A stretch of 64,000 nucleotides of DNA, taken from assembly GCA_963736895.1 (NCBI GenBank), contig CAVTQU010000011.1, positions 21,153 to 85,152 on the forward strand, read 5' to 3'. Position 1 is the stretch's first letter. Every line of letters starts with the position of its first letter. The position numbers were made by a program, and so were the translations under genes. The notes beneath the pieces are model-generated. The model was not told the origin of the DNA. It saw only the letters and a list, made by a program, of their open reading frames with translations, and made no database searches. Positions 11,849-61,123 of the stretch are shown here, in pieces. The stretch is from an uncultured Chloroflexia bacterium. Its GTDB lineage: Bacteria; Chloroflexota; Limnocylindria; Limnocylindrales; CSP1-4.

Positions 11849-11900
11849 ACCCGCAGATTTTGAACATGTTCCCGTGGCGTAAGGTCTCAACGAGTCGCAA

Positions 11901-12254: not shown

Positions 12255-12284
12255 GACTGCCAAGCCGATAACGGTTTCGTTATC

Positions 12285-43303: not shown

Positions 43304-43320
43304 AGCCCGGCGGGGCCGTG

Positions 43321-45805: not shown

Positions 45806-47326
45806 GTGGCTACGGTTTCCTACATCCCAAACGACCCGATGGCGGTCGGTGGCCCGCCCGTGCACAACGTGCGCGCCGCGGCACTGCCGAGATCCAGCGC
45901 GGGCTTCGACATCCAACCGGCCGCCGACCCAGGCGTCTACCCGAGCCAAACGCCCGAGTTCGATTTCTGGCAGGTACGGGAAGCCCTGATCAAGGGCCTG
46001 AAGCTGTGGCGCGCCGTCGACGGCGCGTACCCGCCTGCGTGGTTTGGTGGGCAGGCTCGATTGAAGGTCCTGACCGATGCCGGCGACGACCTGAACGCCT
46101 TCTACGACAGGCGCAGCCTGCAGTTCTTCCACCACACCTTCGACGGTCAAAAGGTCCACTCGGGCGAGAGCGTCGACGTCGCGGTGCACGAGGAAGGTCA
46201 CGCACTACTCGACATGATCAGGCCCGACTTCTTCGAAGTGCCGTTCATCGAGGTCGGCGCGCTCCACGAGGCGTTCGGCGATTGTGTGGCCATCCTGACG
46301 GCGCTGAGCGACCGGTCGATCCGCGAGGCGGTGCTCAGCACGTCGGCGGACCTGTCATCGAAGCACTTCGTCCAGGCGATGGCCGAGGAGCTGGGCGATG
46401 CCATCCGGCGCGAGTACGGCAATGCCGCGGTGGAAGACGGCGCGCTCCGGAACGCCTCCAATACGCTCAGCTGGTCCGATCCGACAGCATTGCCGCCTGG
46501 TGGCCCGGCGACCACTCTGAGCGGCGAAGTCCACTCGTTTTCGCGCGTTTTCACAGGCGCGTTGTATGACTCGCTGCGCAACATGTACAACGACGGCGGC
46601 ACGGGCTCGGCCGCGAAGCTCGGCCGCGTGACGAAGACCCTGGGCAAGCTCCTGATCGCGGGCGTCCGTGCCGTTCCGGCCACGCCGCGGACGTTCGAGG
46701 GTGTCGGTCGGCGAATGGTCGAGGCCGACGTCACCTCGAACGGTGGCGTCAACGCGGCGGCCATCCGAGCTGCATTCGGAGCGCACGGGATGACACTCCC
46801 CGCGCCGAGAGTGGAGATGGCGGTGCCGGTGAAGCGGCGTACGCGTGGCGGCAGCAGCGCTCAGCTGCGCGAGGAGCTCAACGTTCCGGCAGGCACGCCA
46901 TTGAGCTTCACCCCCGTATCGACGGACGTGAATGGCGACATCTCCCACGTCGTTGCGTACCGGCCGTTGCAGCTGACCGAGGGCGAGCTGAGCGGCGTAC
47001 GGCTGATGGTGCCCGCCACTGCCGCGGTACGCACTCGCGGTCGAACGGTGACCGGCGTAATCGGCGCCATAAAACCGGCCGACCAGGACGTCGAACGTGA
47101 AGGCCGGGCATTCGCGCGAGCCCTGCTCGCCAACGGCGACATTCGAGGAACGGCCGAGCCAACCGGTGCGGCGGGTCGTCGACGGACACGCGGCGCATCT
47201 CCGGTGGGCGTAATCGCGCCGCAACCGCGGCCGGCGTACGCGCCCTTCCCGCCGACCCACGAGGTGAAGATCGTGGGCGGCGAGCCGACGCTGAGTCGCA
47301 TCGGATTTTCCGGCCGCCGGCGCTAG
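45806..47326 (+). CDS. putative cytoplasmic zinc metallopeptidase (HExxH + downstream Glu, thermolysin-like spacing)
   Basis: GTG at 45806 lies 6 nt after GGAGGG. VAVHEEGHALLD...GALHEAFGD, with the third-ligand Glu 27-28 residues after the first His. No signal peptide. Carries a ~175-aa C-terminal extension. Confidence 0.65.
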   Translation: MATVSYIPNDPMAVGGPPVHNVRAAALPRSSAGFDIQPAADPGVYPSQTPEFDFWQVREALIKGLKLWRAVDGAYPPAWFGGQARLKVLTDAGDDLNAFYDRRSLQFFHHTFDGQKVHSGESVDVAVHEEGHALLDMIRPDFFEVPFIEVGALHEAFGDCVAILTALSDRSIREAVLSTSADLSSKHFVQAMAEELGDAIRREYGNAAVEDGALRNASNTLSWSDPTALPPGGPATTLSGEVHSFSRVFTGALYDSLRNMYNDGGTGSAAKLGRVTKTLGKLLIAGVRAVPATPRTFEGVGRRMVEADVTSNGGVNAAAIRAAFGAHGMTLPAPRVEMAVPVKRRTRGGSSAQLREELNVPAGTPLSFTPVSTDVNGDISHVVAYRPLQLTEGELSGVRLMVPATAAVRTRGRTVTGVIGAIKPADQDVEREGRAFARALLANGDIRGTAEPTGAAGRRRTRGASPVGVIAPQPRPAYAPFPPTHEVKIVGGEPTLSRIGFSGRRR

Positions 47327-47379
47327 GGCGAGCGGCGAGAGAGTCGGGTATCGGGGCCGGCGACCGCAACCGGCGGACG

Positions 47380-47853
47380 TCAGTAGGCGGAGAAACCAAT
47401 TCGACGCAACACGCGGCGGCCGCTGGCATCGTCCACGATCTCGTGCGTCGGCCGCGTCGGCGGGCCGTACGAGGCTGCCGTGGCCGCGACACCACGCACC
47501 GCGCCCGATGCGATGAGATTTCGCGCCCACGCCTGGACTTCGCGCGTGATGTCGTCATCCATGGGCGGAGCGGATTCGGCTGTGTCGTCTGTGGCCAGAT
47601 TGACGTGACCGGTCCACGGGACGGGCACGTAAACGTCCGCCAGGGCCGAATCTTCGGACCCGAGCGGCACCAATCGCGACGCGCTGACCTCGTACCCCTC
47701 GTCGGAGGAAGTCGGGCTGGCGGAATCGACCACCTCGACGGGTCCGTCGGCGTCAGGGACGGCGGCCATGAGGCTCCTCTGAAGCTCGTCTTCGGGCGTG
47801 CCGGTCTCATCGGCCGTGTCGGCCCGACGATCCGAGTCGCTGGACGAATCCAT
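47380..47853 (-). CDS. hypothetical acidic protein sharing the C-terminal module of the 45806 metallopeptidase
   Basis: ...DITREVQAWARNLIASGAVRG...PPTRPTHEIVDDASGRRVLRRIGFS aligns with DVEREGRAFARALLANGDIRG...FPPTHEVKIVGGEPTLSRIGFS. The start is uncertain: MDSSS at 47853 or MAAVP at 47769. Confidence 0.5.
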   Translation of the reverse strand: MDSSSDSDRRADTADETGTPEDELQRSLMAAVPDADGPVEVVDSASPTSSDEGYEVSASRLVPLGSEDSALADVYVPVPWTGHVNLATDDTAESAPPMDDDITREVQAWARNLIASGAVRGVAATAASYGPPTRPTHEIVDDASGRRVLRRIGFSAY

Positions 47854-47868
47854 CCCGAGGCATCGTAG

Positions 47869-48990
47869 ATGTTCGAGCTGCAGGTGGTTCAGGCCGAGTT
47901 CGGTGACTGTCTCCTGGTCCGCTACGGAACGTCGACCAGCAACCGCTCGATCCTCATTGACGGCGGCCCGTCGGGGAACTACGAGGCTCATCTCCGCCGC
48001 GTGCTGCGGGACGTGGCGTCGGCGGGCCTGCGGCTGGACCTCGTGGTCCTGAGCCACATCGATAACGATCACGTGAAGGGCTTGCTCGACTTCTTCACCG
48101 AGCTCCAGGACGACGCTGTCGATCCTGTCGCGGCGGCTCGCAGCGGCCTGCCAGTGGTGGCCGAGCTGTGGCATAACACGTTCTCCGTGAGTGCCGGCGG
48201 CGCGGACATCGCCCCGCGCATTCGCGAGGCGCTGGCCATGGCCGGCGGCGGCGCGACCCAGCTAAGGACGCTCACAGGCACGCTGATGGGCGTCGGCGAG
48301 GGCGACGCGCTCGGGGTGGCGGCCGTGGCCCTCGGCGTGCCCATAAATCCGCGCTTTGCCACAGGGTCAGTCCTGCTGGACGACTCCCCCACCATTCGCA
48401 TGTCCGGGCTGCGCATCGACGTCCTCGGACCCAGCACGACGAGCCTTGGGCGGCTGCGCGACGAGTGGCTGACCTGGCTGGCCGCCCACGGCCGCGGTGT
48501 GGCCGCTGGTCGGGGCCTCAGCGCAGCCGCCGCCATCACTGCCGACAACACGATTCCCAACCTGAGCAGCATCGTTCTGCTGGTTCGCGCGCGCGGGCAC
48601 TCAATGCTGCTGACCGGCGACGGGCGCGGCGATCACATCGTCGACGGGATGCGCGAGCGCGGCCTGCTCCCCGCGCAGGGCGGCAACTTCCACGTCGATC
48701 TGCTTAAGGTGCCGCACCACGGCAGTGCGCGCAATGCGACAGAGGAGTTCTTCGCGACCGTAACCGCCGATCGATACGTCATCTCCGCCAACGGCCGCTA
48801 CGGCAACCCGGATCTGCCGTGCCTGATTTCGATCGTCGATGCCGCGGCCGGCCGGCCGATCGAGCTCGTCTGCACCAACAAGACCGATTCGCTGCGCGAT
48901 CTAGTCAAGGAGAGACCAGCGGCCAAACACGGCTACAGGATCACCACGATGAAGTCCAAGTCCAACGTGATGACGGTCGCCCTCGATTAG
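47869..48990 (+). CDS. MBL-fold metallo-hydrolase (ComEC/Rec2 C-terminal-domain type), soluble
   Basis: ILIDGGP...LVVLSHIDNDHVKG...MLLTGDG...LLKVPHHGS. 373 codons, intact. Confidence 0.75.
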   Translation: MFELQVVQAEFGDCLLVRYGTSTSNRSILIDGGPSGNYEAHLRRVLRDVASAGLRLDLVVLSHIDNDHVKGLLDFFTELQDDAVDPVAAARSGLPVVAELWHNTFSVSAGGADIAPRIREALAMAGGGATQLRTLTGTLMGVGEGDALGVAAVALGVPINPRFATGSVLLDDSPTIRMSGLRIDVLGPSTTSLGRLRDEWLTWLAAHGRGVAAGRGLSAAAAITADNTIPNLSSIVLLVRARGHSMLLTGDGRGDHIVDGMRERGLLPAQGGNFHVDLLKVPHHGSARNATEEFFATVTADRYVISANGRYGNPDLPCLISIVDAAAGRPIELVCTNKTDSLRDLVKERPAAKHGYRITTMKSKSNVMTVALD

Positions 48991-49061
48991 CACCTGCCCC
49001 ACACGCCTGAGCACTGGTGGGAGCCGGCGTGGCGGAGAGAGGTGGAGTATCGGCGCCGCTG

Positions 49062-50966
49062 TCAGAACGGGGTGGGGGTTGCGAGAATCTCTGACACGGT
49101 GAAGTAGATGAAGGTCTCATCCTGGTTCGGCAGGCCCTCGTTCGTGTACGCGTAGATGCGTTTGAGCCCACCCCTGGCTCGCTGCACGCGAGTGGGAACG
49201 CTGATGAACTCGCCCGATCCGTTTGTGGTCCCGCTCGTGATGAAGTCATCGCTCTCCCACCGCAGCACGACCGGTGTATTCGGTGGGAAAGCCAGCAGAT
49301 GGAACGTAACCAAGTCTCCGATCCGGGCGGATGGTGGGTCGACCGTGATGACGCGGTCGAAGGGCGGTACGGTCGCGGGCGCCTGCGTCGCCGATCCGGT
49401 AGGAATGGGCGAGAGCGCGGGCGACGGAGAGCTGGTGGCACCGCCACCGAAGGCCAGCACCAGCATGAACAGCAAGCCGGCTGCGACAACGGCAATCAAC
49501 GCCGCCACTCCCACCTTGCCGATCATGCCCTTGTTGTGTTCCCACTGGGCCTTGATCCCTCCCGCGTCGGACGGGACGGCCGTGATAGGTGGGGCCTGAC
49601 CGGCAGGCAGCGCAGCGCCGTCACTCGCGGACGCCGGGGCTGGCGGGGCTGGCGGAGGGCCGCCACCGGCTACAGGTGTGGTTCTCGCGCCGCCGGCGCC
49701 TGCCACCGCAGCGGCAGCAGCGGCTCCGGCAATCGGAGCTGCTGCATCGTGCCTGTCGGCAGACCCCTCCGTTGATTCGACCTTGGCTGTCCCGGCTGCG
49801 GCGACGCCCGTGGCAGCAGCTGCTGCGATGTCGACTGGTGCCGCCGCGCGTACCTCTTTCGGCAGGTTGAAAAGAATTCCGTCTGGCGAACGCATGAAGA
49901 GAACCGGAGTGCCCCATTCGTAGGTGTTCGCAACCTGCAGCGCAACCGATTTGCGCGCCTCCGCCACGGCTGTGTCGACCGCCATGCCGCGCGCAATGGC
50001 GGTGTAGAAGACGCGACTGAACTGGATGGCAGCGTCGTCGGTGATCTCGAACTGCATCGCAACAACCGCGGGCGTGCCACGGCGCACCAATGCGGCGGCA
50101 GTGCTCGAGAAGATGTCCGTCTGGGTGCCCTGTGCCGTCTCGCATGAATTGAGGAGAGCCAGGCGGAGCGGCTCGTGGTCGCCCAGCAGCACCGCCAGAT
50201 CCTTGGCCGCGAGCTCGTGCGCCTTGCCGTCGTCACCCGTCAGGTAGATGACGCCCGACTGCAGCCGCTCACTGAATCCACCGTGGCCAACGAAATGGAA
50301 GATGTGCCACGGACCGTCCCATAGCGTCTGTTGGAGATCCTCCCATGTCTCGCCGGCGACCCAGTGGACCTCGACGAGTCCCTTTTGCCGGACCTTCTCG
50401 AGGGCCATGTCGAGCCTTTGCCGTTCGCGCTGGGCGTCGAGCGTGCCCAGATCGCTGGGGCCGGCGGCCATGGCCAGGATCCGCAGCGGCGGTGATACCT
50501 CGAGCGGCTGAATGGGTTGGGCCAGAGGCAGGTAGCGGACGACCGGGGTCGATGTGCCGAGGGCAAGGTAGTTCCCGCGAGCCGCGTCATACAGGTATTC
50601 CCACGGCAATCCGGCCAGCTCAGGCGCGGAGATGCGCAGCTTTATGCGCACTCCCTTGCCGCCGCTCTGGGCGATGGTTCGGCTAACGTCCAGCCGGCTG
50701 CCAACCTCGCCCTTGAACAGTGACGCGAAGAGGTCGGTGCCGAGCTCCTCTACGGACTTGTCTTCAACCGAAGCGGCGCGACGTGTCCCACCGGACCGGA
50801 GCAGGGCGATCTGCAGTGCCTGGATCTTGTTCTGGAGCGCCAGCCGGTCGTACGGGAACGTCATCTCGCCGTGCGCTTCGCCAGCCGGCGACTGAACGAC
50901 CGATACCTCGTAGGTGCCGCTCGTTCCTGCCTCAACCGCGATGTCGAAGTCCAGGTAATCCATCAC
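49062..50966 (-). CDS. CHAT-domain (caspase-like) protease: N-terminal CHAT, one TM helix, C-terminal extracytoplasmic domain
   Basis: WHIFHFVGHGGF (His) and LALLNSCETA (Cys), an Ala/Pro-rich linker, TM helix IGKVGVAALIAVVAAGLLFMLVLAFGG, then ~120 aa that are beta-rich. Confidence 0.8.
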   Translation of the reverse strand: MMDYLDFDIAVEAGTSGTYEVSVVQSPAGEAHGEMTFPYDRLALQNKIQALQIALLRSGGTRRAASVEDKSVEELGTDLFASLFKGEVGSRLDVSRTIAQSGGKGVRIKLRISAPELAGLPWEYLYDAARGNYLALGTSTPVVRYLPLAQPIQPLEVSPPLRILAMAAGPSDLGTLDAQRERQRLDMALEKVRQKGLVEVHWVAGETWEDLQQTLWDGPWHIFHFVGHGGFSERLQSGVIYLTGDDGKAHELAAKDLAVLLGDHEPLRLALLNSCETAQGTQTDIFSSTAAALVRRGTPAVVAMQFEITDDAAIQFSRVFYTAIARGMAVDTAVAEARKSVALQVANTYEWGTPVLFMRSPDGILFNLPKEVRAAAPVDIAAAAATGVAAAGTAKVESTEGSADRHDAAAPIAGAAAAAAVAGAGGARTTPVAGGGPPPAPPAPASASDGAALPAGQAPPITAVPSDAGGIKAQWEHNKGMIGKVGVAALIAVVAAGLLFMLVLAFGGGATSSPSPALSPIPTGSATQAPATVPPFDRVITVDPPSARIGDLVTFHLLAFPPNTPVVLRWESDDFITSGTTNGSGEFISVPTRVQRARGGLKRIYAYTNEGLPNQDETFIYFTVSEILATPTPF

Positions 50967-51130
50967 CGCTCACCGCGTGACCTATCGGCCCCAACCCGCA
51001 CGCTAAGCCTGAGCATTGACCTCCGCTAGCGGGAAGTCAACTAAATAGAGATCGGATCGACGACAAGAACCGAGTCGCAAGGCGGACAGAATCGGCGGTA
51101 TGACGGTGCCGGCGAAGCCGTGCTTACTCG

Positions 51131-51580
51131 TCAGAGCGAGGTCTGCCGCCGGGCGTCGGAGTCTGCACCCCGACGCCCTGCAGCCCGTGCGTCCACCGTG
51201 GTGGCATCACGGGTAAGGGCACCGATTTCACCGGTCCGCAGTGGACCGCCGAGGATGGCAACCCGATCGCGAATGATCTCGCAATGGGTCAGCCGGGCGT
51301 CGTAGCTGGCCGCATCCGTCCGTCCCGGAGCGGCCACGATCGCCACTTCATCCTCGACCTCGAGTGCCCGTAGTCCGCCACCGCCGGCCGCCCCAGCGAC
51401 CGGCGCGTCGGCAGCGGTGTTGATGTTTACTCGGAAGCACGGCTGCGGCGGCACGCCCAGCGCCTGCCACAGCCGCACTCCCGGTGGATCGGGCGCGCCG
51501 CACGGAGGGTCGAAAGAGATTCCGGCGTCAGTGACGCCGCCTACCCAGGCCCCTGGTGGAACCCGGGAGTCGCTTCCCAT
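51131..51580 (-). pseudogene. contractile-tail sheath-like N-terminal fragment (gene remnant)
   Basis: PPGAWVGG...CFRVNIN...GLRALEVEDEVAIVAAPG...THCEIIRDRVAILGGP follows the sheath N-domain pattern PGVYxEE...CYxV...LddVxLLVaaG...C...FAxxDgP. It covers only ~150 of the ~400+ residues, and no other tail genes are nearby. Confidence 0.4.
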
Positions 51581-51650
51581 TCGCGCGCCCCTCCATGCGC
51601 CCGGGTTAACGGATGTCCGGGCGTGGACGCCATCATCTACCGCGGATGAC

Positions 51651-51675
51651 GAAAGTCAATAGTTATTTGACTTTC
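51651..51675 (-). terminator. perfect 9-bp hairpin just after the GMC gene (possible terminator or protein-binding site)
   Basis: GAAAGTCAA-TAGTTAT-TTGACTTTC lies 19 nt past the stop at 51694. No U-tract follows. Confidence 0.3.
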
Positions 51676-51693
51676 GGTTCATTGACGTTTTCC

Positions 51694-53376
51694 CTAAGAC
51701 GGCCAGTCCTCGTTCGACGCTGTCTCAAGGATTCGCGTTGCGAAGCGGTCAGACAGGGCGGCGATTGTCAGGCTGGGATTGGGCCCAACGGGCCCCGGCA
51801 TGACCGAGCCGTCGGCCACGAAGAGCCCGGGCTGGCCGAACACGCGTCCCCATGGATCGACCACACCCTCGTCCCGGTTGCGACCCATCGGGCAGCCGCC
51901 GAGCGGGTGGACGGTGATCACGCGCCTTCCGAAATGCCACAGCGGGTTGTCCATGAAACGGGCGCCCATCTCGACGGCCATGCGCTCCATCTCCTGCCGG
52001 GCACGCAGGAAGTAGGGCGCCGACCGATCGATCGCCCACGTTGAAGTGAGGCGGCCACCGTCCATGCGCAGCGTTCCGTCGGGCACGTCTCGTCCCATGG
52101 CGCCGATCGGCATCAACGAGGACGAGCGTCGCGCTGTGCCGAGAATCGCGGCGAACTCGGCGCCGAGATCCGTGTCGCGGTCGCGGCCGATGAGTCCCAT
52201 CAGCAGCCGTGCAAACGTATGCCGGGCACGCCACAGGATGCCTGGCGTGTCCGTGGCCTCGATCACCCAATCGAGGAAGCCCGGGTAGCCGACGTCCTCC
52301 ATGTAGAAGCCGCGGCCCGCAGGACCATCGGGAAAACGTATTGCCGCCGCGATGGAGGGCCCGCGACTGGCTTCGATGCGCAGCGGCACCTTGCGGCCGT
52401 CACGCTTGACGCTCGCATCCATGGCCAGCGTCAGGAGGTCGCCGTTGCCGGAGAACCTGTTGCCCAGCATCGGGCTGACGCCGGGCAGGTTCTTGAGCAT
52501 CAGGAACGTGGAGCCGAACGTGCCCGCGGAGAGGATCAGGCGATCGGCCGTCGCCGACTCGACCGGCAGCGCCACCGTCCGCGTCGAGTGACCTTCGCGG
52601 CCCAGATGGTGGCGCACGAAGTCGACTCGCCAGCCATCGTCCTGCCGAGCGAAGCTCCGCACCTCGGAAAGCGTCCGGATGTCCGCGCCGTGGCGCTTGG
52701 CCGCCGACAGGTAGTTGAAGTCGAGCGAGTTCTTGGCGCCGATGTTGCAGCCGATGTCACATTCGCCGAGCAGGCGGCAGGTCTCGCGCGGGCGGTCGTG
52801 AAGGTTAGGCTCCTCCTCGGCGATCGGCTCACCGACGGCCGGTTCGCGGCCCTCGTTGGCAAACGTTATGGCCAGCTTCGGCAGGTAAGGATCCCAACCC
52901 AGCCGCTTGCCGGCCGCGATGAAAGTTCGCGTCCGGGGCGTCCGGAACGACGGGTGATCGAGCGGATAGACCTGGCCGTTGAGCATCTTCTCGGCCCGCT
53001 CGTAGTGCGGATCGAGCTCCTCGCGCGTCACTGGCCAGGTTTCGACGTTGGGCTCGTCGACAAACGTGTCGGCGTCCTTGCGGATCATCACGTTGGCGTA
53101 GATGAGCGATCCGCCGCCCAGCCCACTCGAAACCACCGCGCCGAAGTGGGGGAACGACCAGATGTTGTACATGCCGTAGCCGCCCGCACTTGGATCCCAG
53201 AACGCTTTTCGGAAGCCTCGTGGCGAACGTGGGAAGTCACCCGGGCCAAAAGCCTGGCCGCGCTCCAGCAGAAGCACGCGTTTGCCGGCATCGCTCAACC
53301 GCTCGGTCATCACAGAGCCACCGAAGCCGGAGCCTATGACTATCGCGTCGAAATGCTCGACCGCCTGGTCGGTCAT
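51694..53376 (-). CDS. GMC-family FAD oxidoreductase (cholesterol-oxidase-like)
   Basis: Start MTDQAVEHFDAIVIGSGFGGSV. C-terminal VHPLGGCPMG...LFVADGSVMPG. ATGA overlap with the upstream gene. Confidence 0.8.
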   Translation of the reverse strand: MTDQAVEHFDAIVIGSGFGGSVMTERLSDAGKRVLLLERGQAFGPGDFPRSPRGFRKAFWDPSAGGYGMYNIWSFPHFGAVVSSGLGGGSLIYANVMIRKDADTFVDEPNVETWPVTREELDPHYERAEKMLNGQVYPLDHPSFRTPRTRTFIAAGKRLGWDPYLPKLAITFANEGREPAVGEPIAEEEPNLHDRPRETCRLLGECDIGCNIGAKNSLDFNYLSAAKRHGADIRTLSEVRSFARQDDGWRVDFVRHHLGREGHSTRTVALPVESATADRLILSAGTFGSTFLMLKNLPGVSPMLGNRFSGNGDLLTLAMDASVKRDGRKVPLRIEASRGPSIAAAIRFPDGPAGRGFYMEDVGYPGFLDWVIEATDTPGILWRARHTFARLLMGLIGRDRDTDLGAEFAAILGTARRSSSLMPIGAMGRDVPDGTLRMDGGRLTSTWAIDRSAPYFLRARQEMERMAVEMGARFMDNPLWHFGRRVITVHPLGGCPMGRNRDEGVVDPWGRVFGQPGLFVADGSVMPGPVGPNPSLTIAALSDRFATRILETASNEDWPS

Positions 53377-54161
53377 CTGATCGAAACCTCCTTCGCGCTG
53401 GTCGGCTGCGGTGGCGCGAGTCGGGAGCGAATCGCGAACGCACCCGCCGGGACGGACGGCTGGGCATGGCCTTCGTCGGGCCGGGCTCCCGCGCGCAATG
53501 CGATCGCAGCGGATTCCCGGTAGTAGTCGGTCCACCAGCGGGCCGACTGCCAGATCGCGTCAGGGCAGCTGGAGGTCGACTCGAGTCCGGGCGTCAGCTC
53601 GATGCCCGCGATGGCATGACACAGTTCGACCAGCGCGGCGCCGGGCATTCCGCGGCCCTCGCGCAGCGGAGCATCGAGATCCGCGACTCCCCAAATGGAA
53701 GCCAGCCACGCCGCGGTCAGAGCAGGGATGTCCAGCACGGCTCTCCCTGACACGACATCGTCGAGTGCACCCAGGACCGGTGCGAACGTGGAGCTGAACA
53801 GGAGGATGGCGATGTTGGGGTAGGCGACAGGATCGTCGTAGCGATCAAGCGGGACGCGGGTTACGCCGTTCCTGGCCGCGAACTCGCCCGGATCGCCGAT
53901 GGCATCGAGAGGCACTGTTGTCGCCTCGCCGGCGTTGAGCAGCGCGGCCACGGACCAATGACTGGGCGTCAGGTCGGACCGCAGCCGCGACTGCGCGACC
54001 CGCAGCCGCAGGTCGGTGAGCGCGGCACCGCCGATCAGCAGCACGCCCTGCGAGATCTCGGACCGTTTCAGCCACGCGACGTTGCCCTCGCTTCGTTTTG
54101 GCTTCGCCTCGCGCACCTGCGGGTTGGGTGAGCGGGCGCCAGAGTGGCGCATCGCGAACAT
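53373..54161 (-). CDS. hypothetical protein
   Basis: 262-codon ORF translationally coupled (ATGA) to the GMC gene. No family recognised. Confidence 0.5.
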   Translation of the reverse strand: MFAMRHSGARSPNPQVREAKPKRSEGNVAWLKRSEISQGVLLIGGAALTDLRLRVAQSRLRSDLTPSHWSVAALLNAGEATTVPLDAIGDPGEFAARNGVTRVPLDRYDDPVAYPNIAILLFSSTFAPVLGALDDVVSGRAVLDIPALTAAWLASIWGVADLDAPLREGRGMPGAALVELCHAIAGIELTPGLESTSSCPDAIWQSARWWTDYYRESAAIALRAGARPDEGHAQPSVPAGAFAIRSRLAPPQPTSAKEVSIR

Positions 54162-54179
54162 CTGTCCCTCCCCTTCGAG

Positions 54180-55517
54180 CTAGTTGAGGCGGCCGGAGAA
54201 GCCGGCAATTGGTTGTGGAGATGAGCCGTCGACGCCGACGAGCCACGCCGTGTGGTCAAGGCGAACCGATCCACCCTCCGCCCAGAGGGCGAGCGTCGCA
54301 AAGTGGTTCTCGTATGTCTGCAGCGGCCCAACCGTGACCGGCGCGCTGACGACACCGGGTACCGGAAAAGCCGGGAAGGTTTGAGGCGGCGCCTTCCACT
54401 TGCGCCCGGCGCGATCGTCAACGAGCGCCATGGGCGAGGCAATGATCTCGACGATGCGCCTGCCGTTCGGCAGCCGCACCTCGGCGACGCGCCCGAAGTG
54501 GACGTCTCCGGTCACGATCACCACGTCGTGCGTGGCCGCGTTCAGCGCCCGCACCAGGTCCGCGTACTGCGCGTAGTCGGGGAGCGTCCAGTCGGACACG
54601 TACCCGCGCCACCCGGTGCGCGGTGACAGGATCGGCTGACCCAGCGTCAGAATCGCGGGCCCCGTCAGCGACTGCAACCACGTCGCCAACTCGGCCAGCG
54701 TGGCGGGATCCATGAACTGGCCTCGGTCGGCGGTGCGCGAGAAACGTGTGTCGACGATGCGCATCGACAGCGGCGGGAGCTCGATCGCGTGCAGCCGTAG
54801 CGGCGTCTGGTAGGCATCGAAGAGCTGCTCAGCCAGTGTGGTCCATGTCTGACGGCCCATGTGAGTCCATGTGTCGGGCAGATGCGGCGCGACGTTGGGA
54901 GCGTTGTTCCAGAGCTCGTGGTCGTCGCCCGAGAGGAACGCGCCGACGTTAGAGGCAAGCGCACCGAAGCCGCCGTCGGGCATGCGCTGTCCAAACGTCA
55001 GGCCGTAGTTGGACGCGAATTCGGCCGCCAGCTGAAAGGGCGAGTGGAAGCTGAACAAGAAGTGGGCGATTGGCGTGTCGAGATACACCTGGTCACCAGT
55101 GAGCACGGCAAATTGAGGCTGGAAGGCCTGTGGCAGGCGCAGGAATGCGCGACCGAGGGCGCCTGACGTGTCGCGCAGGACGCTGAAACACGAGGCGGTC
55201 AGCATCATCAACGGCGAAGCGATCGTTGGCAGTGCCTCGGGAAGTGTCGATAGCCGGCACTCAGCCATGGGCTGTCCTGCCTCTGCCAGCACGAGCTGGT
55301 AGCCGCTGCCGGGGCTCAGACCGGTCAGCTCGACGCGCTGCTGCCACGCGAAAATAGTGCCGAAACCCTGTGGCACACCGGTCCAATTGCCCGGCACGGG
55401 AACTGGAATAGGTGCTCCCCGTATCTCGGCCGACACCGGCGGAGACGGCGACGGCCAGACTACGGAGAGCCACGCGTTCCGGCTCCCTACCTCGCGTGGC
55501 AGCATCAATGGCGTCAC
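54180..55517 (-). CDS. PhoD-like/calcineurin-type metallophosphoesterase
   Basis: VLTGDQVYLD, LSGDDHELWNN and VIVTGDVHFGRV. The GTG at 55517 overlaps the upstream stop (GTGA). The upstream 186 codons of the track ORF are not used. Confidence 0.65.
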   Translation of the reverse strand: MTPLMLPREVGSRNAWLSVVWPSPSPPVSAEIRGAPIPVPVPGNWTGVPQGFGTIFAWQQRVELTGLSPGSGYQLVLAEAGQPMAECRLSTLPEALPTIASPLMMLTASCFSVLRDTSGALGRAFLRLPQAFQPQFAVLTGDQVYLDTPIAHFLFSFHSPFQLAAEFASNYGLTFGQRMPDGGFGALASNVGAFLSGDDHELWNNAPNVAPHLPDTWTHMGRQTWTTLAEQLFDAYQTPLRLHAIELPPLSMRIVDTRFSRTADRGQFMDPATLAELATWLQSLTGPAILTLGQPILSPRTGWRGYVSDWTLPDYAQYADLVRALNAATHDVVIVTGDVHFGRVAEVRLPNGRRIVEIIASPMALVDDRAGRKWKAPPQTFPAFPVPGVVSAPVTVGPLQTYENHFATLALWAEGGSVRLDHTAWLVGVDGSSPQPIAGFSGRLN

Positions 55518-56998
55518 GAGCTCTCGTCCGACTCGAGCGTGGCGCGGTAGTCGCGAACCTGGCGCAACGCAGCGCGCAGACGCTTCTCCACCTGGGTCAG
55601 GTACCCGAGCTCCTCGGCGCGCACGGCGGCTTCGATGCGCGCGACCTCGTCCGGGCCGAGCGTGCGCTCCAGGAGCAGCATGGGCACGCCGCCGCCAGGC
55701 CAATTCGCGCCGCCGCCACCACCACCCGCAGACACCGTTCCGGCCACGCCGGCCACGCCGGCCGTGACGCCAGGCGGAGTAGGCGGCACAGCCTCTGGGG
55801 AGAGCCCGATGAGCTGGCACACCAGTGGAACGGCGGAGCAGAACTTCCGGTAGTCGAAGAGCCCGGCATCCGACGTGTCGTCCAGGATCCCGTCGCTGTT
55901 GGCGTCGCGCCAGCCGAGGTGAATCGGCGTCTGGGGGCACATGGCCCACGTGTTGGCGCTCATCAGGCAGTCGACCTGCGGATTGGCGCAGGTCTGGCAG
56001 TTGGCGTTCGGCTCGCGCCACCAGCCGAACTTTGCCGAGCACGAGCAGTTGCTCGAGGCGTACTCGTCCGGGCAACCGAAGATGTGGCCCGTTTCGTGGG
56101 TGAAGACGCGGTCGATGTTGTCGGGTCCCCAGCCGTCGTTGTCGTACTGCATCACGAGCTTGGGCTTCAGCGCATAAGCGAAATGGGCGAGCGGGTACTT
56201 CGTGAAGAAGGCCACGTACGCCCAGCGAGTGGCCAGGTCGCGCCGGATCTTCTCGGCGTGCTGCTTCGCGCCGAGGACGTTCCCCATGTAGCCGAGGCTG
56301 ATCAGTGCCGGGTCACGCCAGTGCGCCTCGAGCTGCTCATAGCCGGACTTGTTCGGGTCAGGTGGGTTGGCGATCTGTACGCTCCTGATGTCGTAGGCAA
56401 AGCTGACGCTTGCTCGTGGCTCGCGTTGCGCCAACCAGCCCAGGCCTTCCTGCACCTCGGCGACGACCTTGGTCTTCTCTTCGTCGGAGAACTTGAGATC
56501 GGGCGTTGGTCCGTCGACGATCACCAGGCCAACGGCAACGCTGCCGATGAGGTACGGGCTGAGGTCGCTGCCGATGAAGCCATGCGGCTCCGCCGGTCCG
56601 GCCTCGGTCACGTGGGTCATGCCCGGTCCGTCGGGCGCTTCCGGTGTCCCGCCGGTCTGATCCCAGGCAACTCCTTCGCGCGGCCGCTCGGCCTTGGCCG
56701 CGGCGAAATCCTTCGATCGGCGCAGATTCCACGCCTCGATTCCCAGCTCCTCTGCTGCGGTCGCACCACGAGGGGCACGCCGTACTGGTGCGGCATGGAC
56801 GGCCTTTACCGTCTTGAGCGCGTTGACCGCCTCGGCAGATTTGGGTCCGGCCGCGCAGATCAGGACGCGATCTCCGTAGCGCTGCAGGACCTGGGCACCG
56901 CGCGCCTCGATCGCACCCATTGCTCGGTGGGTGTTTGGTCCGTCACCGTCGGTCAGGATGACCAGCTGCTGGCCGTTGTCCGAAGCTCTGCTAGGCAT
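55514..56998 (-). CDS. putative zinc metallopeptidase with HExxHxxGxxD (snapalysin/metzincin-like) motif and a Cys-rich insert
   Basis: AGGAGG SD. FTHETGHIFGCPDEYASSNCSCSAKFGWWREPNANCQTCANPQVDCLM. It has a ~105-aa N-terminal domain, a Gly-rich stretch and a C-terminal helical tail. No signal peptide. Confidence 0.6.
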   Translation of the reverse strand: MPSRASDNGQQLVILTDGDGPNTHRAMGAIEARGAQVLQRYGDRVLICAAGPKSAEAVNALKTVKAVHAAPVRRAPRGATAAEELGIEAWNLRRSKDFAAAKAERPREGVAWDQTGGTPEAPDGPGMTHVTEAGPAEPHGFIGSDLSPYLIGSVAVGLVIVDGPTPDLKFSDEEKTKVVAEVQEGLGWLAQREPRASVSFAYDIRSVQIANPPDPNKSGYEQLEAHWRDPALISLGYMGNVLGAKQHAEKIRRDLATRWAYVAFFTKYPLAHFAYALKPKLVMQYDNDGWGPDNIDRVFTHETGHIFGCPDEYASSNCSCSAKFGWWREPNANCQTCANPQVDCLMSANTWAMCPQTPIHLGWRDANSDGILDDTSDAGLFDYRKFCSAVPLVCQLIGLSPEAVPPTPPGVTAGVAGVAGTVSAGGGGGGANWPGGGVPMLLLERTLGPDEVARIEAAVRAEELGYLTQVEKRLRAALRQVRDYRATLESDESS

Positions 56999-57016
56999 CG
57001 GCGTAACCTCCTACCC

Positions 57017-57382
57017 GTGAACGAGGTGCTGATCGTGCTGAGCACCGCGGCGCGGCTGACAACGCGAGACCTGGCCGCCCAGGCGCCGATCTCCAACGCC
57101 GGGGCGCAGCTGTTCGGGGATCGCGTGCTGATCGCGCGGCTTGAGCCACCCGACTGCGAGGCCGTGTCCGCGATCGACGGCGTCAGCGGCGTCTTCGAAG
57201 GCCCGGTGCCCGTGGATGTCGAGCCCGTTGACGATCTCGCGGGAAAGCTCGCAGTCGACGCCTGGAACTCGCGCAAGGTCGCGTCCGCGACGGCGAAGGA
57301 GAGGATCGGCGACGGCGCGGCGTGGGACGATCCGCGGTTCGAGCGCGAGGGAAGCCAGGATCCATCGGGCGAGGACGGCTGA
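57017..57382 (+). CDS. stand-alone paralog of the N-terminal domain of the 55514-56998 metallopeptidase
   Basis: The last 121 codons of track ORF 55412..57382 lie where no minus-strand gene exists. AGAQLFGDRVLIARL...CEAVSAIDGV...AVDAWNSRK...AKERIGDGAAWDD aligns with RGAQVLQRYGDRVLICAA...AEAVNALKTV...GIEAWNLRR...AKAERPREGVAWDQ. GTG start with no obvious SD. Confidence 0.5.
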   Translation: MNEVLIVLSTAARLTTRDLAAQAPISNAGAQLFGDRVLIARLEPPDCEAVSAIDGVSGVFEGPVPVDVEPVDDLAGKLAVDAWNSRKVASATAKERIGDGAAWDDPRFEREGSQDPSGEDG

Positions 57383-57398
57383 GGCGGTCGCGGGCATA

Positions 57399-59939
57399 TC
57401 AGGGGGTCGTCCGCGCGATCGTCATGTGTGGATGCCCGAAATACTGGTAGGCCAGGTATGTCGATGAGATCGTGGACGGGTCGTTCTTGAACGCGGCTCG
57501 TTCCTCGCGCAGGATGTCCGCTGGCGTGCGTCCGGTGAGCGCCTTCTCGTAGAAGCGCAGGGCCAGCTCGCGGGCCATAACGTCGTCGATCGACCACAGT
57601 GGGGCGATGACACCCGATGCACCGGCAAAGAGGAACGCTTCGGCCATGCCGGCGTAGTCACCGAGGACCTGTTCGCCGCTGCCCACCTGGCACGCGTTCA
57701 GGAATACGAATGGGCGCGATCGCAGCGGGCTCCCGCGGATCTGCATGGGATCGAGAGTCAGGCCGTCGACCAGGACGATGCCGTCGATCTCCCCATTGGG
57801 GTCGTACTGCCCGTGGACAGCGAAGTGCAGCAGCTCCGCCTCGGGGTTGCCGCTCACAAGTCGCAGCACGTCCTGGCTTGCCGCGTTCACCTTGGTCGCG
57901 TCGTAGAGCTTGGCCAGCTCGTCGGCCTCCTGCTCGGCGTCGAGCAGCCGATCCCAGCCAGGCAGCTCATAGACGCCCGAGACGACCGCCATCTTGTGCA
58001 CGGACAGGGTCGCTGGCGGCGGCAGCTTGGGCCGATGCTGGCCCAACACCCACCGACCAACTGACGCCTGTGCCGCCAGGAACGGCGGCACAGCATCGTC
58101 CAGTGGCGGGTCCATGACCGCCAGCTCCCACGGCACGTACGGTTCCGCGGACAGGAAAAGGATCGTCGGCGGCCGGTCCGGGATGGTCTTTGCGACTTCC
58201 CGGATAACGTTCCAGAACTCGTCGGGCAGCTGGTCGGCGATGGTCAGGCCGATCCCCATGAGTGCGGCGTACATGCCCGGCTGCCCCTCGGCAGCATTCA
58301 TCTTGCGGATGATGTCGCGCAGGAAGAGGCCCGGCTCGTTGCCGATGTCCACCTCCATTGGGTCACTCGGGATCTTGATCTCCTGGTCGGATGCCAGCAT
58401 CTGGAGCAGCAGCCGGCCGGCAGGCTGACCCACGTCGACGCGGATCGTGAGGTCGGGCGGCACCGCATCGGTCGGCAGGACGATGTCCACCGGCTCTTCT
58501 TGCGGAGGCGGTTCGCTTGTCGCCAGCAACGCCGCATCCCTGGCGACCGCAATGGGGCGTGCAGCGAGCCCCACGGCCTGGCCCTCGATCGAATACATCG
58601 CCCGCACGGTGCGGGCCACGATCGGACGGGTCTGCGCCTCCGCGGCGAGATGGAGCACGCCCGTCGGGTACGGCGCCTCGCTTGTCACACGCAGGTCGAC
58701 GCGCCAGCTCTCGTTCGGGCGGACGAGTCGAAAGCCATCGGCGATGACCTGGATCGTCATCGTGTAGGCACCAACGATCCGCTCCGGCACGATCAACGGG
58801 CCGCCCACCACCTCGCTGTCCGCTTCCTGGGCGAGTCCGACGACCAGCTCGAACTGCTCCTCGGCAACGACCGCCTCCGGGCATTCGATGTGGGCGTAGC
58901 TCGAACGCGGCGGCGCTACCGCCGCGGCCGGCGGCGCGTCAGCCTCATGATCGGGCGGTTTCGCGTGGGTCGGATGGCCGCCCCTGGTCGTGTGGTGTTC
59001 GGGGATGGACTCCGGCTCCGGCTCCGGCGGTGGGGTCGATCCGTCGATTGCGCCGACACCCGCAATGATCGGCGGAGGCGGAAGCGGCATCGTTTCGGGC
59101 GGAGGCGAGGCAATCGTGATGGGCGGAGGGGGCGGGATGTATTCAGGAGGCGGGATGTATTCAGGAGGCGGGGGCGGCTGCTGCCCGTAAGTCGGCTGTC
59201 CGTAGGCACCTGGCCCGTAGCCGGGGCCGGTCGGCTGCTGGCTCGGCCGCCGCACAATGAATCCACCCAGCAGGACATGGCTCAGACCGCCGAGTCCGCC
59301 GGGCACGACGGTCCAGACGGCGAGGTTTCCTCCATCGGCAGGGACCCATCCTTGTTGTTGGGCGAGGATCAGGGCACCCGCACCAAGCGCCGCTCCGCCA
59401 ACCACCGACCTCCCCAAACCTCCGCCGCCACGGGCCCCGGCCAACAAGCCGGTTCCTGCCGCGACTACGCCAACACCGGCGAGGACCAGGCCAACGATGT
59501 CTGCAATGGTGATTCCGGCTCCGGTGACGTTGACCCAGACGGTCATCGGGGGACAGTCGTCAATCGTTGCTACAACCTGATAGAGCCCGGCTCCGTATGT
59601 CGCGTACTGGCCAATCGGGAGCGGTCCGGTCCAATGCTCCTGCCCCGTAGCGTCAGGCAGGTCCCTCGTGATTGGCAACGGTCCGAGCATCGCGGTCACG
59701 GACGCGTTTTCGATCGATCCGACGGTGTCGAGCGTCACCGTCGATGTTCCGTCGGCCGAGACCGATATCGGCTTGTCTGAAGTGGAGTGTCCGTTGATGC
59801 TCTGGTTATCGATTTGGATGCTGCATTGCGCTGCAGCGGCACGGGCCGCAGGCGGGCGAGCCAGTAACAGAAGCGGCATCACGATCAGGGCGGCGACGAG
59901 CAGACGCAGATAGAAGACTGGCCCCTCGTTTCGCGCCAT
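57399..59939 (-). CDS. CHAT-domain (caspase-like) protease: extracytoplasmic N-domain, 3 Gly-rich TM helices, Pro-rich linker, C-terminal CHAT
   Basis: Signal/anchor LRLLVAALIVMPLLLLA. LLHFAVHGQY (His) and FVFLNACQVG (Cys). 846 codons, intact. Confidence 0.8.
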   Translation of the reverse strand: MARNEGPVFYLRLLVAALIVMPLLLLARPPAARAAAAQCSIQIDNQSINGHSTSDKPISVSADGTSTVTLDTVGSIENASVTAMLGPLPITRDLPDATGQEHWTGPLPIGQYATYGAGLYQVVATIDDCPPMTVWVNVTGAGITIADIVGLVLAGVGVVAAGTGLLAGARGGGGLGRSVVGGAALGAGALILAQQQGWVPADGGNLAVWTVVPGGLGGLSHVLLGGFIVRRPSQQPTGPGYGPGAYGQPTYGQQPPPPPEYIPPPEYIPPPPPITIASPPPETMPLPPPPIIAGVGAIDGSTPPPEPEPESIPEHHTTRGGHPTHAKPPDHEADAPPAAAVAPPRSSYAHIECPEAVVAEEQFELVVGLAQEADSEVVGGPLIVPERIVGAYTMTIQVIADGFRLVRPNESWRVDLRVTSEAPYPTGVLHLAAEAQTRPIVARTVRAMYSIEGQAVGLAARPIAVARDAALLATSEPPPQEEPVDIVLPTDAVPPDLTIRVDVGQPAGRLLLQMLASDQEIKIPSDPMEVDIGNEPGLFLRDIIRKMNAAEGQPGMYAALMGIGLTIADQLPDEFWNVIREVAKTIPDRPPTILFLSAEPYVPWELAVMDPPLDDAVPPFLAAQASVGRWVLGQHRPKLPPPATLSVHKMAVVSGVYELPGWDRLLDAEQEADELAKLYDATKVNAASQDVLRLVSGNPEAELLHFAVHGQYDPNGEIDGIVLVDGLTLDPMQIRGSPLRSRPFVFLNACQVGSGEQVLGDYAGMAEAFLFAGASGVIAPLWSIDDVMARELALRFYEKALTGRTPADILREERAAFKNDPSTISSTYLAYQYFGHPHMTIARTTP

Positions 59940-60009
59940 CGGCGCGAGTGAACGACTTTAGAGGTGGCTAGTCAAGTCAGATTTGACTCAATGCCTGGTA
60001 GCAGGGCGA

Positions 60010-60492
60010 CTAAGCAGGGGTGGCGGCCGTCTCCGACGCAATGCCCGCCTTCTTTGCCCAAGCCGTGCAAAGTGCCTCGACGGATGCCGGAGCCACCTTG
60101 CCGATCGCGAGCGCGGCGACGACGCCGGCGATGGCGGGCGCGAAGCCGACCTGGGCTACCAACAATGTCGCGAGGCCGGCGGTGATCGTCATGCGGTTGC
60201 CGCCCAGGGTGGCGATGAACGCATCGAACCTGCCGCCCTGCATTCCGCTGCACACGAGTCCGTACCCCGCGCGCGAGAGCGTCGAGAACGCCTTTCGGCC
60301 GGCTTCGACCATGTCACCGAGAGCGATTCCCTTCGGCTCGAGCATTGACCGCGGTGGCGCGAACTGTCCCGCGATCGTGGGATCGCGTTGGATGGCCGAG
60401 ATACGCAGGCCAAGCTGTCGGTAAAGCTCGTCGTCGTCGGTGTCCTCAAGCTCTTGCGCAGCTTGCAGGGCCGACTCCATCAGCTCAGGCAT
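60010..60492 (-). CDS. hypothetical protein (first gene of the CHAT operon)
   Basis: GGGAGG SD, acidic N-terminus and hydrophobic Gly/Ala-rich C-terminal half. No family recognised. Confidence 0.5.
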   Translation of the reverse strand: MPELMESALQAAQELEDTDDDELYRQLGLRISAIQRDPTIAGQFAPPRSMLEPKGIALGDMVEAGRKAFSTLSRAGYGLVCSGMQGGRFDAFIATLGGNRMTITAGLATLLVAQVGFAPAIAGVVAALAIGKVAPASVEALCTAWAKKAGIASETAATPA

Positions 60493-61060: not shown

Positions 61061-61123
61061 GTGTGCGACAGGTATAGCCCAATTCGTCCCAGTTGACCTA
61101 CGACGAGTCCTCACTCGAATCAG

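Follow-up and report, generated by a model that had tools for sequence, protein, structure and literature searches.

Contractile injection systems (CISs) are known from the Afp/PVC type of extracellular CIS (eCIS) and from the cytoplasmic CIS of Streptomyces with its membrane protein CisA (PMC8213781, PMC10020575, PMC12237407). The ends of eCIS loci carry a DUF4157 metallopeptidase and toxins (PMC8213781), and the bitopic CisA is required for firing (PMC12237407). Gated modules with a metallo-β-lactamase-fold (MBL) hydrolase have been described as Avs1/Avs2/Avs4-MBL, Hachiman HamMAB, the Lamassu hydrolase-protease pair, DRT-MBL and canu CanABC (Tuck et al. 2025, PMC12799240; Evans et al. 2025, PMC12642450). 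CHAT/caspase conflict systems comprise Craspase with TPR-CHAT, CBASS with CHAT-SAVED, and the NTPase-centred systems of multicellular bacteria (Kaur et al. 2020, PMC7159879). Here we examined a 15-kb locus of an uncultured Chloroflexia bacterium of the order Limnocylindrales, located within a stretch of 64,000 nucleotides (contig CAVTQU010000011.1 of assembly GCA_963736895.1, positions 21,153 to 85,152) that is referred to below as the window. The locus encodes two CHAT proteases (CHAT1 and CHAT2), an M36-like and a metzincin-like zinc peptidase, an MBL-fold hydrolase, a PhoD-like metallophosphoesterase, a GMC oxidoreductase and the uncharacterised proteins hyp262 and hyp160 (Table 1). We estimate the probability at about 0.68 that the locus is the remnant of a CIS locus, in which two accessory flanks were fused by a recent deletion of ~12.7 kb, and that it consists of separable modules, including a member of a pro-nuclease family that lacks its usual partner.

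The locus works most like, and partly belongs to, CIS loci with accessory genes and protease-gated effector modules, its membership in both being incomplete. As in CIS and eCIS loci, the counterparts of its genes in relatives flank a cap-sheath-tube-spike-baseplate cluster that starts with a Cis16/Pvc16-like cap gene, and peptidases and a bitopic membrane protein are encoded at the cluster ends. Unlike CIS loci, the window holds only a sheath fragment and the flanks outlast the loss of the CIS, and the peptidases are M36-like and metzincin-like rather than of the DUF4157 type found in eCISs. As in gated MBL modules, the MBL protein displays a full-length family match, ComEC-type motifs and, at the presumed position of gating linkers, a long insertion rich in Gly and Ala, and proteases are encoded nearby (CHAT1 at 72 bp, tail-to-tail, and the M36-like peptidase two genes away). 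However, its gene has no protease gene directly upstream in its own operon, no S8 subtilase of the kind paired with its outgroup relatives is present, and there is no STAND, Hachiman, ABC or RT sensor. The candidate proteases are a metallopeptidase or membrane-anchored CHAT proteins, both unreported as MBL activators, and the genes lie at the flank of a CIS rather than in a defence island. The clan-CD CHAT domains with intact His/Cys dyads, the Chloroflexota genome and the hydrolytic effector-like neighbours recall the CHAT/caspase conflict systems. On the other hand, both CHAT proteins span the membrane and have extracytoplasmic domains, and scans with Pfam, NCBIfam and PADLOC found no gene for Cas7-11, SAVED, cyclase, STAND or vWA-MoxR, as the initial annotation of the locus, made from the sequence alone, had also concluded. 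In a limited collection of literature, we found neither CHAT proteases, gated MBLs or PhoD-like cassettes (PhoD-hyp262-GMC) as CIS accessories nor a CIS of Limnocylindria, and nothing relevant on a combination of PhoD, patatin and GMC.

Deletion of a contractile injection system between two conserved flanks

Genes were called by listing and translating open reading frames (ORFs), and scanned with Pfam, NCBIfam and PADLOC. Loci of relatives were gathered by homologue searches and are designated by L-numbers (L001, L010, L117 and so on). A tail-sheath remnant had been recognized in the initial annotation, and this was borne out by comparison with relatives. The fragment of 64 codons is 62% identical to residues 101-164 of the intact 400-residue sheath of L010 (tblastn, E = 7e-16), and identities to the sheaths of L009-L013 are 56-58%. 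No other CIS gene was found in the 64-kb window. In L009-L013, whose hyp262 proteins are 49-58% identical to that of the window, the counterpart of the sheath ORF is situated ~1 kb downstream of the GMC gene, and genes for Pvc16_N-like, sheath, gp19 tube, CIS_tube and VgrG-like proteins directly follow GMC. The order in L010 is a Pvc16_N-like cap, the sheath with its Phage_sheath_1 and Phage_sheath_1C domains (Pfam), a gp19-type tube, a 395-residue protein, CIS_tube and a VgrG-like spike. L009 displays the genes for hyp160, CHAT2, the metzincin-like peptidase, the PhoD-like protein, hyp262 and GMC, and then the CIS.

The opposite end of the CIS was observed in L086, which was found via its homologue of the M36-like peptidase and lies on the same contig (36.6 kb) as L010. 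Here, the CIS ends with genes for a baseplate protein (858 residues), Tail_P2_I, two fibre-like paralogues and a 159-residue protein. These are followed on the opposite strand by c_239, which encodes a polytopic membrane protein, and an MBL gene (44% identical to that of the window at the protein level), and then by the small paralogue of the M36-like peptidase (50%), hyp160 (45%), a regulator with helix-turn-helix and TPR domains (HTH-TPR, 47%) and the M36-like peptidase (57%). L087, on the contig of L012, harbours the CIS end, c_239, MBL, the small paralogue, hyp160 and the M36-like peptidase, and continues with homologues of CHAT2 (55-64%) and CHAT1 (61%) and a third CHAT gene. Taken over L086 and L087, identities to the window proteins are 44-49% for MBL, 48-50% for the small paralogue, 45-47% for hyp160 and 49-57% for the peptidase. 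A metagenome scan seeded on the M36-like peptidase revealed a CIS end with the same genes (baseplate and/or fibre-like genes, c_239, MBL, small paralogue, hyp160 and peptidase) in L094, L095, L103 and L110, where the peptidase, its paralogue and hyp160 vary in order and orientation.

A full set of sheath, tube, spike and baseplate genes is thus located at the homologous site in L009-L013, L086 and L087. In L010/L086 coordinates, the segment that starts with the cap gene and ends with c_239 measures ~12.7 kb. In the window, the stop codons of GMC and MBL are 2.7 kb apart, and the interval contains only the sheath fragment and CHAT1. Because the CIS core and c_239 (~12.7 kb) separate GMC and MBL in the relatives, the present adjacency of the two gene groups in the window is secondary. 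A close relative, the 15-kb contig L168, carries HTH-TPR, M36-like peptidase, small paralogue and MBL genes whose products are 87-96% identical to those of the window (MBL 90%, HTH-TPR 95%), and has kept c_239 immediately after MBL; the deletion in the window is therefore recent. In L001 and L006, which share ~74% identity with the window and 88-97% with one another, GMC is followed by MBL without a CIS and without a scar.

The ancestral layout, as still displayed by relatives, would have had the genes for hyp160 and CHAT2, the metzincin-like peptidase, the PhoD-like protein, hyp262 and GMC on one side, and a middle part of ~12 kb encoding the CIS, with genes for cap, sheath, tubes, spike and baseplate as well as fibre-like genes. 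The other side would have consisted of c_239, MBL, the small paralogue, hyp160, HTH-TPR, the M36-like peptidase and CHAT genes. In the window, ~12.7 kb with the CIS and c_239 has been lost, and the sheath fragment and CHAT1 are located between GMC and MBL.

In L087 and L012 (contig_80725) and in L006, we noticed that the genes for MBL, the M36-like peptidase, CHAT2, GMC and the metzincin-like peptidase are split into 2-4 frames. These are long-read contigs of metagenome-assembled genomes (MAGs), and indel error is a more likely cause than pseudogenisation.

Selection on the flanks was examined with the ratio of nonsynonymous to synonymous divergence (dN/dS). Between L001 and L006, every flank gene gave values of 0.05-0.16 at an unsaturated dS of ~0.4, with the exception of the small paralogue of the metzincin-like peptidase (g10, 0.38). 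Values between the window and L001 or L006 were 0.13-0.34, and those of the small paralogue of the M36-like peptidase (g2) and of g10 ranged over 0.09-0.34 and 0.25-0.38, respectively. The flank genes are under purifying selection. As L168 dates the deletion in the window as recent, the intact flanks of the window say little about function, and the argument for selection after loss is carried by the comparison of L001 with L006. The low values in these two loci, where the CIS is absent at this site, indicate that the flanks have been kept although the cis-linked CIS was lost in an independent event.

These results bear on the possibility that the flank genes encode CIS payloads (tube-loaded toxins), or firing accessories and membrane adaptors like Streptomyces CisA, and that in the window they are orphaned and functionless. 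Their location at the ends of CIS clusters is the usual site of eCIS toxins and accessories, and metallopeptidases are a known eCIS theme (DUF4157, PMC8213781). CHAT1 resembles CisA in being a bitopic membrane protein, and CisA is encoded after baseplate genes (PMC12237407). An orphan gp19 tube gene precedes the M36-like peptidase gene by 28 bp in L117 and L143, and with a deletion as recent as that in the window, intact genes are no proof of use. Nevertheless, L001 and L006 keep every flank gene at the dN/dS values given above with no CIS at the site. Moreover, the PhoD-like gene with hyp262, and the M36-like peptidase with its paralogue, are widespread without CIS, the two peptidases do not match DUF4157, and the polytopic CHAT2 and c_239 cannot be tube cargo. 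We consider a role as payload or firing accessory improbable.

Modules of the locus and their distribution

In order to score locus content, all window proteins were compared by tblastn with 85 hyp262 loci, 80 obtained from a profile-based scan of one genome per species and five from contig look-ups. A first search had yielded 101 homologues of hyp262, and 457 representatives at 50% identity were counted among 1.84 billion proteins. The closest loci, at 74% identity, come from MAGs that carry the label Chloroflexia or Candidatus Limnocylindrales. Further family members are present in Acidobacteriota, Nitrospirota, Nitrosospira, Alpha- and Gammaproteobacteria, Myxococcota, Gemmatimonadota, Dadabacteria, Ignavibacteria/Chlorobi, Bacteroidota, Verrucomicrobiota and a Clostridia-labelled MAG, and carriers among Myxococcota, Nitrosospira and Roseibium are in culture. 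A PhoD-like gene adjoins hyp262 in 82 of the 85 loci, across at least 12 phyla. GMC is found beside hyp262 in 27 loci (about 30%), and a gene for a patatin-like phospholipase is near the pair in ~17 loci from several phyla. The other genes of the locus are confined to few of them: CHAT2 and hyp160 to 3-5 of the closest loci, MBL, g2, the M36-like peptidase and HTH-TPR to the three closest loci (plus one MBL in L057), and the metzincin-like peptidase, upstream of PhoD, to the Limnocylindria loci L001 and L006-L013. CIS genes are near the pair only in Limnocylindria loci. No protease, MBL or CHAT gene is detectable in the vicinity in ~60 of the 85 loci, and all-against-all clustering of the ORFs of the 85 loci revealed nothing else that is widely conserved. 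The conserved unit on the hyp262 seed is PhoD-like plus hyp262 with or without GMC, not the 15-kb set. The gene set for which the initial annotation proposed a single system stays around the CIS within Limnocylindria, but its modules travel separately beyond this group; the proposal is supported in part.

One may ask whether, beyond the conserved PhoD-hyp262-GMC operon, the locus is a chance juxtaposition of unrelated housekeeping genes. Every module does have its own wider distribution, and the adjacency in the window was made by deletion. Nevertheless, many contigs carry the set in rearranged form around the CIS, and comparable sets are found in L117 and L057 (see below), which makes pure chance a very remote explanation.

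As for the patatin genes, those within a few kb of the PhoD-hyp262 pair, with or without GMC, were seen in L016, L018, L019, L034, L026, L028, L030, L033, L039, L045, L070, L072 and L077. The patatin-bearing loci belong to Chloroflexia, Dadabacteria, Acidobacteriota, Gammaproteobacteria and Myxococcota.

The PhoD-like protein (g8) scores just above the cut-off of PF09423 (29.1 bits against 27) in a partial match. As in PhoD phosphatases/phosphodiesterases, the metallophosphoesterase motifs are retained, and the sequences SC, GDQVYLD, DDH..WNN and TGD.H.GR are invariant or nearly so in 77 homologues; members of this family are therefore probably active enzymes. In contrast to PhoD phosphatases, no twin-arginine or hydrophobic N-terminal segment was detected, so that the enzymes are probably cytoplasmic, and the family is paired with the unannotated hyp262. 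The latter gave no match in Pfam, NCBIfam or PADLOC. When its structure was predicted with AlphaFold2 (AF2), a check that the initial annotation had advised, the model was confident (pLDDT 89, pTM 0.89), but no fold in the PDB matched it (best E 0.84, TM ≤ 0.17). No relative was found on viral contigs (IMG/VR), and the extra sequence of longer family members was uninformative. Based on its PSHWS and SSCPE motifs, hyp262 was considered as a permuted papain-like Cys/His hydrolase. This was rejected, as the His is replaced by Tyr, Leu or Ala in several members. A protein of 418 residues (P0467) joins the C-terminal part of hyp262 to a GMC FAD-binding N-terminus, representing either a read-through of the gene overlap or a true fusion.

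The GMC protein of the window has the N- and C-terminal GMC domains with the FAD-binding fold (Pfam), which it shares with GMC cholesterol/choline oxidases. Its score against the NCBIfam cholesterol oxidase (165 bits) is far below the equivalog cut-off. PhoD-like protein and hyp262, often with GMC and sometimes with patatin, probably constitute a cytoplasmic enzyme set that acts on phosphoesters or lipids. Upstream of this set in Limnocylindria, the metzincin-like peptidase displays weak matches to Reprolysin_5, M6 and snapalysin, all below the family cut-offs, and its HETGHIFGCPD sequence aligns with snapalysin (PDB 1c7k) at the motif. Counterparts of its small paralogue g10 are present in L001, L006 and L007 (62-65% identity) and, at 36-37%, in L010 and L011.

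A second module would be the M36-like peptidase (g1) with the small paralogue of its own C-terminal domain. The AF2 model of g1 (pLDDT 84) matched M36 fungalysin and M4 thermolysin-type structures, the latter including aureolysin or neutral protease, with a Foldseek probability of 1.0 (7qp3, 7qfy, 1bqb and 1esp), and a weak sequence match to 7qp3 was also obtained. Like these peptidases, g1 combines HExxH with a downstream Glu in EAFGD, and His128, Glu129, His132 and Glu155 are invariant in 21 homologues. Signal peptide, transmembrane (TM) helix and FTP-type pro-peptide were not detected. Unlike M36/M4 peptidases with a pro-peptide or protein inhibitors, g1 has its β-rich C-terminal module duplicated as the convergent gene g2. 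A search with g1 gave 438 homologues. A g2-like ORF is directly beside the peptidase gene, mostly tail-to-tail, in ~50 metagenome loci. A large clade of g1 with g2, at 35-40% identity, has none of the other locus genes. The possibility that g1 or g9 is the DUF4157 metallopeptidase of eCISs was discarded, as neither matched PF13699 at E ≤ 0.01.

Two further observations concern this peptidase. A gene for a ceramidase-family (PF05875) membrane protein lies between g1 and hyp160 on the CIS flank of L093, L094, L100, L103, L110 and L115 (in L094, for example, at 11770-12666), and is absent from the window. In L117 (966-2849) and L143 (9566-10645), the gp19-type tail-tube gene upstream of the g1 homologue is an orphan far from any complete CIS, an arrangement that resembles the orphan Hcp-effector pairs of type VI secretion.

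Concerning the MBL protein (g3), the PADLOC model LmuA was matched over positions 2-342 of 345 (8.6e-52, 174 bits), followed by Avs1a (1.2e-35) and RTasMBL (3.2e-31); the NCBIfam Avs1a score of 156 bits is below the equivalog cut-off of 420. The metal-binding motifs HIDNDH (ComEC-type HxDxDH) and HHGS are intact, and ~85 extra Gly/Ala-rich residues are inserted between the two parts of the protein that can be aligned with the ComEC MBL domain. From its sequence, g3 is a member of the Avs1a/LmuA/RTasMBL family of ComEC-like nucleases. LmuA, Avs1a and RTasMBL denote the MBL genes in Lamassu, AVAST and DRT loci, and the protein is a latent Zn-dependent nuclease of double-stranded DNA, in which two linkers block the active site until an adjacent protease cuts them away; trypsin-, caspase- and S8-associated clades have been distinguished (PMC12642450, PMC12799240). 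The statement in the initial annotation that the locus has no nuclease can thus not be maintained, as this is a family of gated pro-nucleases described in 2025. Likewise, its statement that no described CHAT/caspase partner is present has become outdated with the caspase-nuclease (canu) loci reported in 2025 (PMC12799240). Its idea of regulated proteolysis is reasonable for part of the locus, but protease-licensed effectors, including this MBL family, had already been described (PMC12642450, PMC12799240).

The nearest homologues of g3 outside Limnocylindria (46-47% identity; L169 and L170) are encoded directly behind Peptidase_S8 genes, as is the MBL of L057. No S8 gene accompanies MBL in the window or in the Limnocylindria relatives. 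The MBL gene of the window is flanked by g2 (divergent) and CHAT1 (convergent), with no adjacent protease gene in the same operon. In Limnocylindria as a whole, g2 and g1 are the genes that most consistently accompany MBL, and CHAT genes lie at a distance of a few kb. An infection sensor (STAND, Hachiman, ABC3C, RT or CanB) was not found by Pfam, NCBIfam or PADLOC among the ORFs between 44 and 62.7 kb. In this third module, with the S8 partner missing, the M36-like peptidase or a CHAT protease would cut the MBL open to a DNase. A reading of MBL and CHAT1 as a canonical canu locus was rejected, as the two genes are convergent and the nearest relatives of this MBL pair with S8 and not with caspases. 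In L169 (5740-9107) and L170 (5056-9107), the MBL gene begins 3-24 bp behind the large Peptidase_S8 gene, and the pair of L169 adjoins a phage-type integrase and a Toprim gene.

Two membrane-spanning CHAT proteases, as the initial annotation had proposed, were recognized by their Pfam CHAT domains and TM helices. CHAT1 (Pfam CHAT 1.8e-25; CHAT of PDB 8tl0 1.5e-8) has His224 and Cys275 motifs and a TM helix at 487-505. Its homologues are found in L087 (61%), L094 and L110 (41%) and L013 (38%), the L087 protein being 903 residues long with Tricorn/PD40 domains. CHAT2 (Pfam CHAT 4e-21; His705 and Cys750 motifs) has homologues either upstream of the metzincin-like peptidase gene (L006, L007 and L009) or tail-to-tail with that of the M36-like peptidase (L087, L093, L094, L102 and L110). 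Up to four CHAT genes (L110) are present on the CIS flank of relatives. The PADLOC SAVED_CHAT model was matched in its CHAT part only (positions 103-270 of 498). As a fourth module, the two CHAT proteases could couple an envelope signal to cytoplasmic proteolysis. Hyp160 matched no family; its homologues are located beside CHAT2 (L001, L006, L007 and L009) or on the other CIS flank between g2 and g1 (L086, L087, L094, L095, L103 and L110). Homologues of the HTH-TPR regulator are beside g1 in L001 and L006 (72%), L086 (47%) and L168 (95%).

Gene inventory and surroundings of the locus

The features are listed in Table 1. The G+C content of the window is 64-69%. Every gene of the initial inventory was present at or near its reported position in the ORF listing and domain scans. 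BLASTP confirmed the two small paralogues (g2 against g1, E = 2e-8; g10 against the N-terminal domain of g9, E = 1e-9). Reading of the sequence verified the ATGA overlap at 53373-76 (g6/g7), the GTGA overlap at 55514-17 (g8/g9) and the AT-rich stretch upstream of hyp160, where GGAGG precedes the start codon. The check for known systems by PADLOC returned domain-level matches for MBL and CHAT and no system-level match.

Table 1. Features of the locus, with coordinates in the window.
Feature	Position	Strand	Description	Basis
g0	44053..45366	-	XRE-type HTH and TPR regulator	Pfam HTH_19/HTH_31 and TPR_12
g1	45806..47326	+	M36/M4-like zinc metallopeptidase, C-terminal β-rich module	HEEGH ... EAFGD; AF2 and Foldseek
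g2	47380..47856	-	Small paralogue of g1 C-terminal module; tail-to-tail with g1	BLASTP
g3	47869..48990	+	ComEC-type MBL-fold hydrolase, protease-gated pro-nuclease family	PADLOC, NCBIfam, motifs
g4 (CHAT1)	49062..50966	-	N-terminal CHAT, low-complexity linker, one TM helix, ~130-residue C-terminal domain	Pfam, PDB, motifs
Tail-sheath fragment	51173..51440, inside 149-residue ORF 51131-51580	-	Scar of deleted CIS	tblastn, Pfam of intact relatives
g6	51694..53376	-	GMC-family FAD oxidoreductase, cholesterol-oxidase-like; last gene of operon	Pfam GMC_oxred_C/N
g7 (hyp262)	53373..54161	-	Uncharacterised family paired with PhoD-like gene	AF2, homologue searches
g8	54180..55517	-	PhoD-like metallophosphoesterase without Tat or Sec signal	Pfam PhoD
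g9	55514..56998	-	Metzincin/snapalysin-like zinc peptidase, N-terminal domain, Gly-rich helical C-terminus; first gene of operon	HETGHIFGCPD
g10	~57020..57382	+	Small stand-alone paralogue of g9 N-terminal domain; divergent from g9	BLASTP
g11 (CHAT2)	57399..59939	-	N-terminal TM/signal helix, ~110-residue ectodomain, further TM helix/helices, Pro-rich linker, middle domain, C-terminal CHAT	Pfam, motifs
g12 (hyp160)	60010..60492	-	Small protein, C-terminal hydrophobic helix	Hydrophobic segment 110-128

Beyond hyp160, at 60614-62661, two unannotated ORFs (166 and 320 residues) and a gene for an ECF sigma-70 factor are arranged on one strand with an ATGA-type overlap at 62083-62086. This group, which may be a sigma/anti-sigma unit, has no counterpart in L001 or L006. 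Two paralogues with a RibD_C domain (36204-37379 and 43094-43939) lie 6 kb apart, both ORFs being ~100-200 codons longer than the domain. At 29523-30956, a protein of 477 residues displays a BNR-repeat match and a weak match to the type VI secretion system Tli3 immunity family.

Links among the modules and their meaning

A looser functional link among the modules is plausible from three lines of co-location. The same gene set is found in shuffled order around the CIS in at least eight independent Limnocylindria contigs, with CHAT2 and hyp160 on either CIS flank and g1/g2 in two orientations. L117 carries the orphan gp19 tube, the g1 homologue, g2, a PKD-domain protein, a 922-residue Peptidase_C14 caspase, GMC, patatin, hyp262 and the PhoD-like gene, the products of GMC, hyp262 and PhoD-like genes being 28-36% identical to those of the window. 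In L057 (8504-18402 of the Clostridia-labelled MAG contig CAZTUB010000012.1), genes for S8, MBL, x291 (a protein of 291 residues without known function), patatin and GMC are co-directional with gaps of 16-102 bp, and the run converges on the PhoD-like and hyp262 genes. By its gene content, this run resembles a protease-MBL module to which lipid-directed enzymes have been added.

These sets raise the question of whether the locus is one coordinated system. The membrane CHAT proteases would sense a signal and set off a zinc-peptidase cascade that unlocks latent effectors (the MBL DNase, PhoD-like protein with hyp262, and GMC). Whether the CIS is present or not, the outcome would be abortive infection or programmed cell death. 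The set not only stays around the CIS in the Limnocylindria contigs despite rearrangement, but survives two independent CIS losses under purifying selection. The set in L117, at such low identity, and the operon-like S8, MBL, x291, patatin and GMC genes of L057 point in the same direction, and published work describes or predicts effectors of the MBL, hydrolase and metallophosphoesterase kinds that are gated by proteases. However, the case for protease licensing of several effectors is outweighed by the ~60 loci in which no protease, MBL or CHAT gene could be detected near PhoD-hyp262, and the large g1-g2 clade has no other partner of the set. The ancestral halves were ~12 kb apart on opposite sides of the CIS, the genes occupy both strands in several transcription units, and neither a sensor NTPase nor a PADLOC system match was found. 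We regard a single coordinated system as a rather doubtful interpretation.

Several points also weigh against a CIS-locus remnant made of separable modules. The window comprises only 64 kb, and a second CIS might be encoded elsewhere in the genome, with the flanks serving it in trans. The deletion model leaves the route by which CHAT1 reached its present position unaccounted for, and the CIS of L168 is presumed, as the contig ends inside c_239. Synteny among Limnocylindria is partly shared ancestry. The gene sets of L117 and L057 fit a tighter functional unit than separable modules. Finally, which protease would cleave which substrate in the locus, as well as any link to cell death or to the CIS, is what we infer from the genes and not an observation.

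Starting from the remnant of a CIS locus, a bolder and unlikely extension would be that the Limnocylindria CIS is genetically wired to protease-licensed latent effectors. CHAT and/or g1, the latter restrained by g2, would unlock the MBL DNase together with PhoD-like/hyp262, GMC and patatin, as a cell-death programme that outlives the CIS. If so, PhoD-like protein and hyp262 would be a new effector class, and one that rests on a fold without a solved relative.

The locus illustrates how a deletion that fuses two gene neighbourhoods can create the appearance of a tidy "system". Limnocylindria are a little-studied soil lineage, and their CIS loci carry unusual conserved accessories, namely CHAT proteases, a gated MBL, and M36-like and metzincin-like peptidases, which outlive the CIS in two lineages. 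The gated pro-nuclease family is extended to a context without its usual protease and sensor, and this raises the question of what licenses the nuclease. With PhoD-like protein and hyp262 present in cultured hosts, and hyp262 adopting a predicted fold without a solved relative, the cassette is directly testable.

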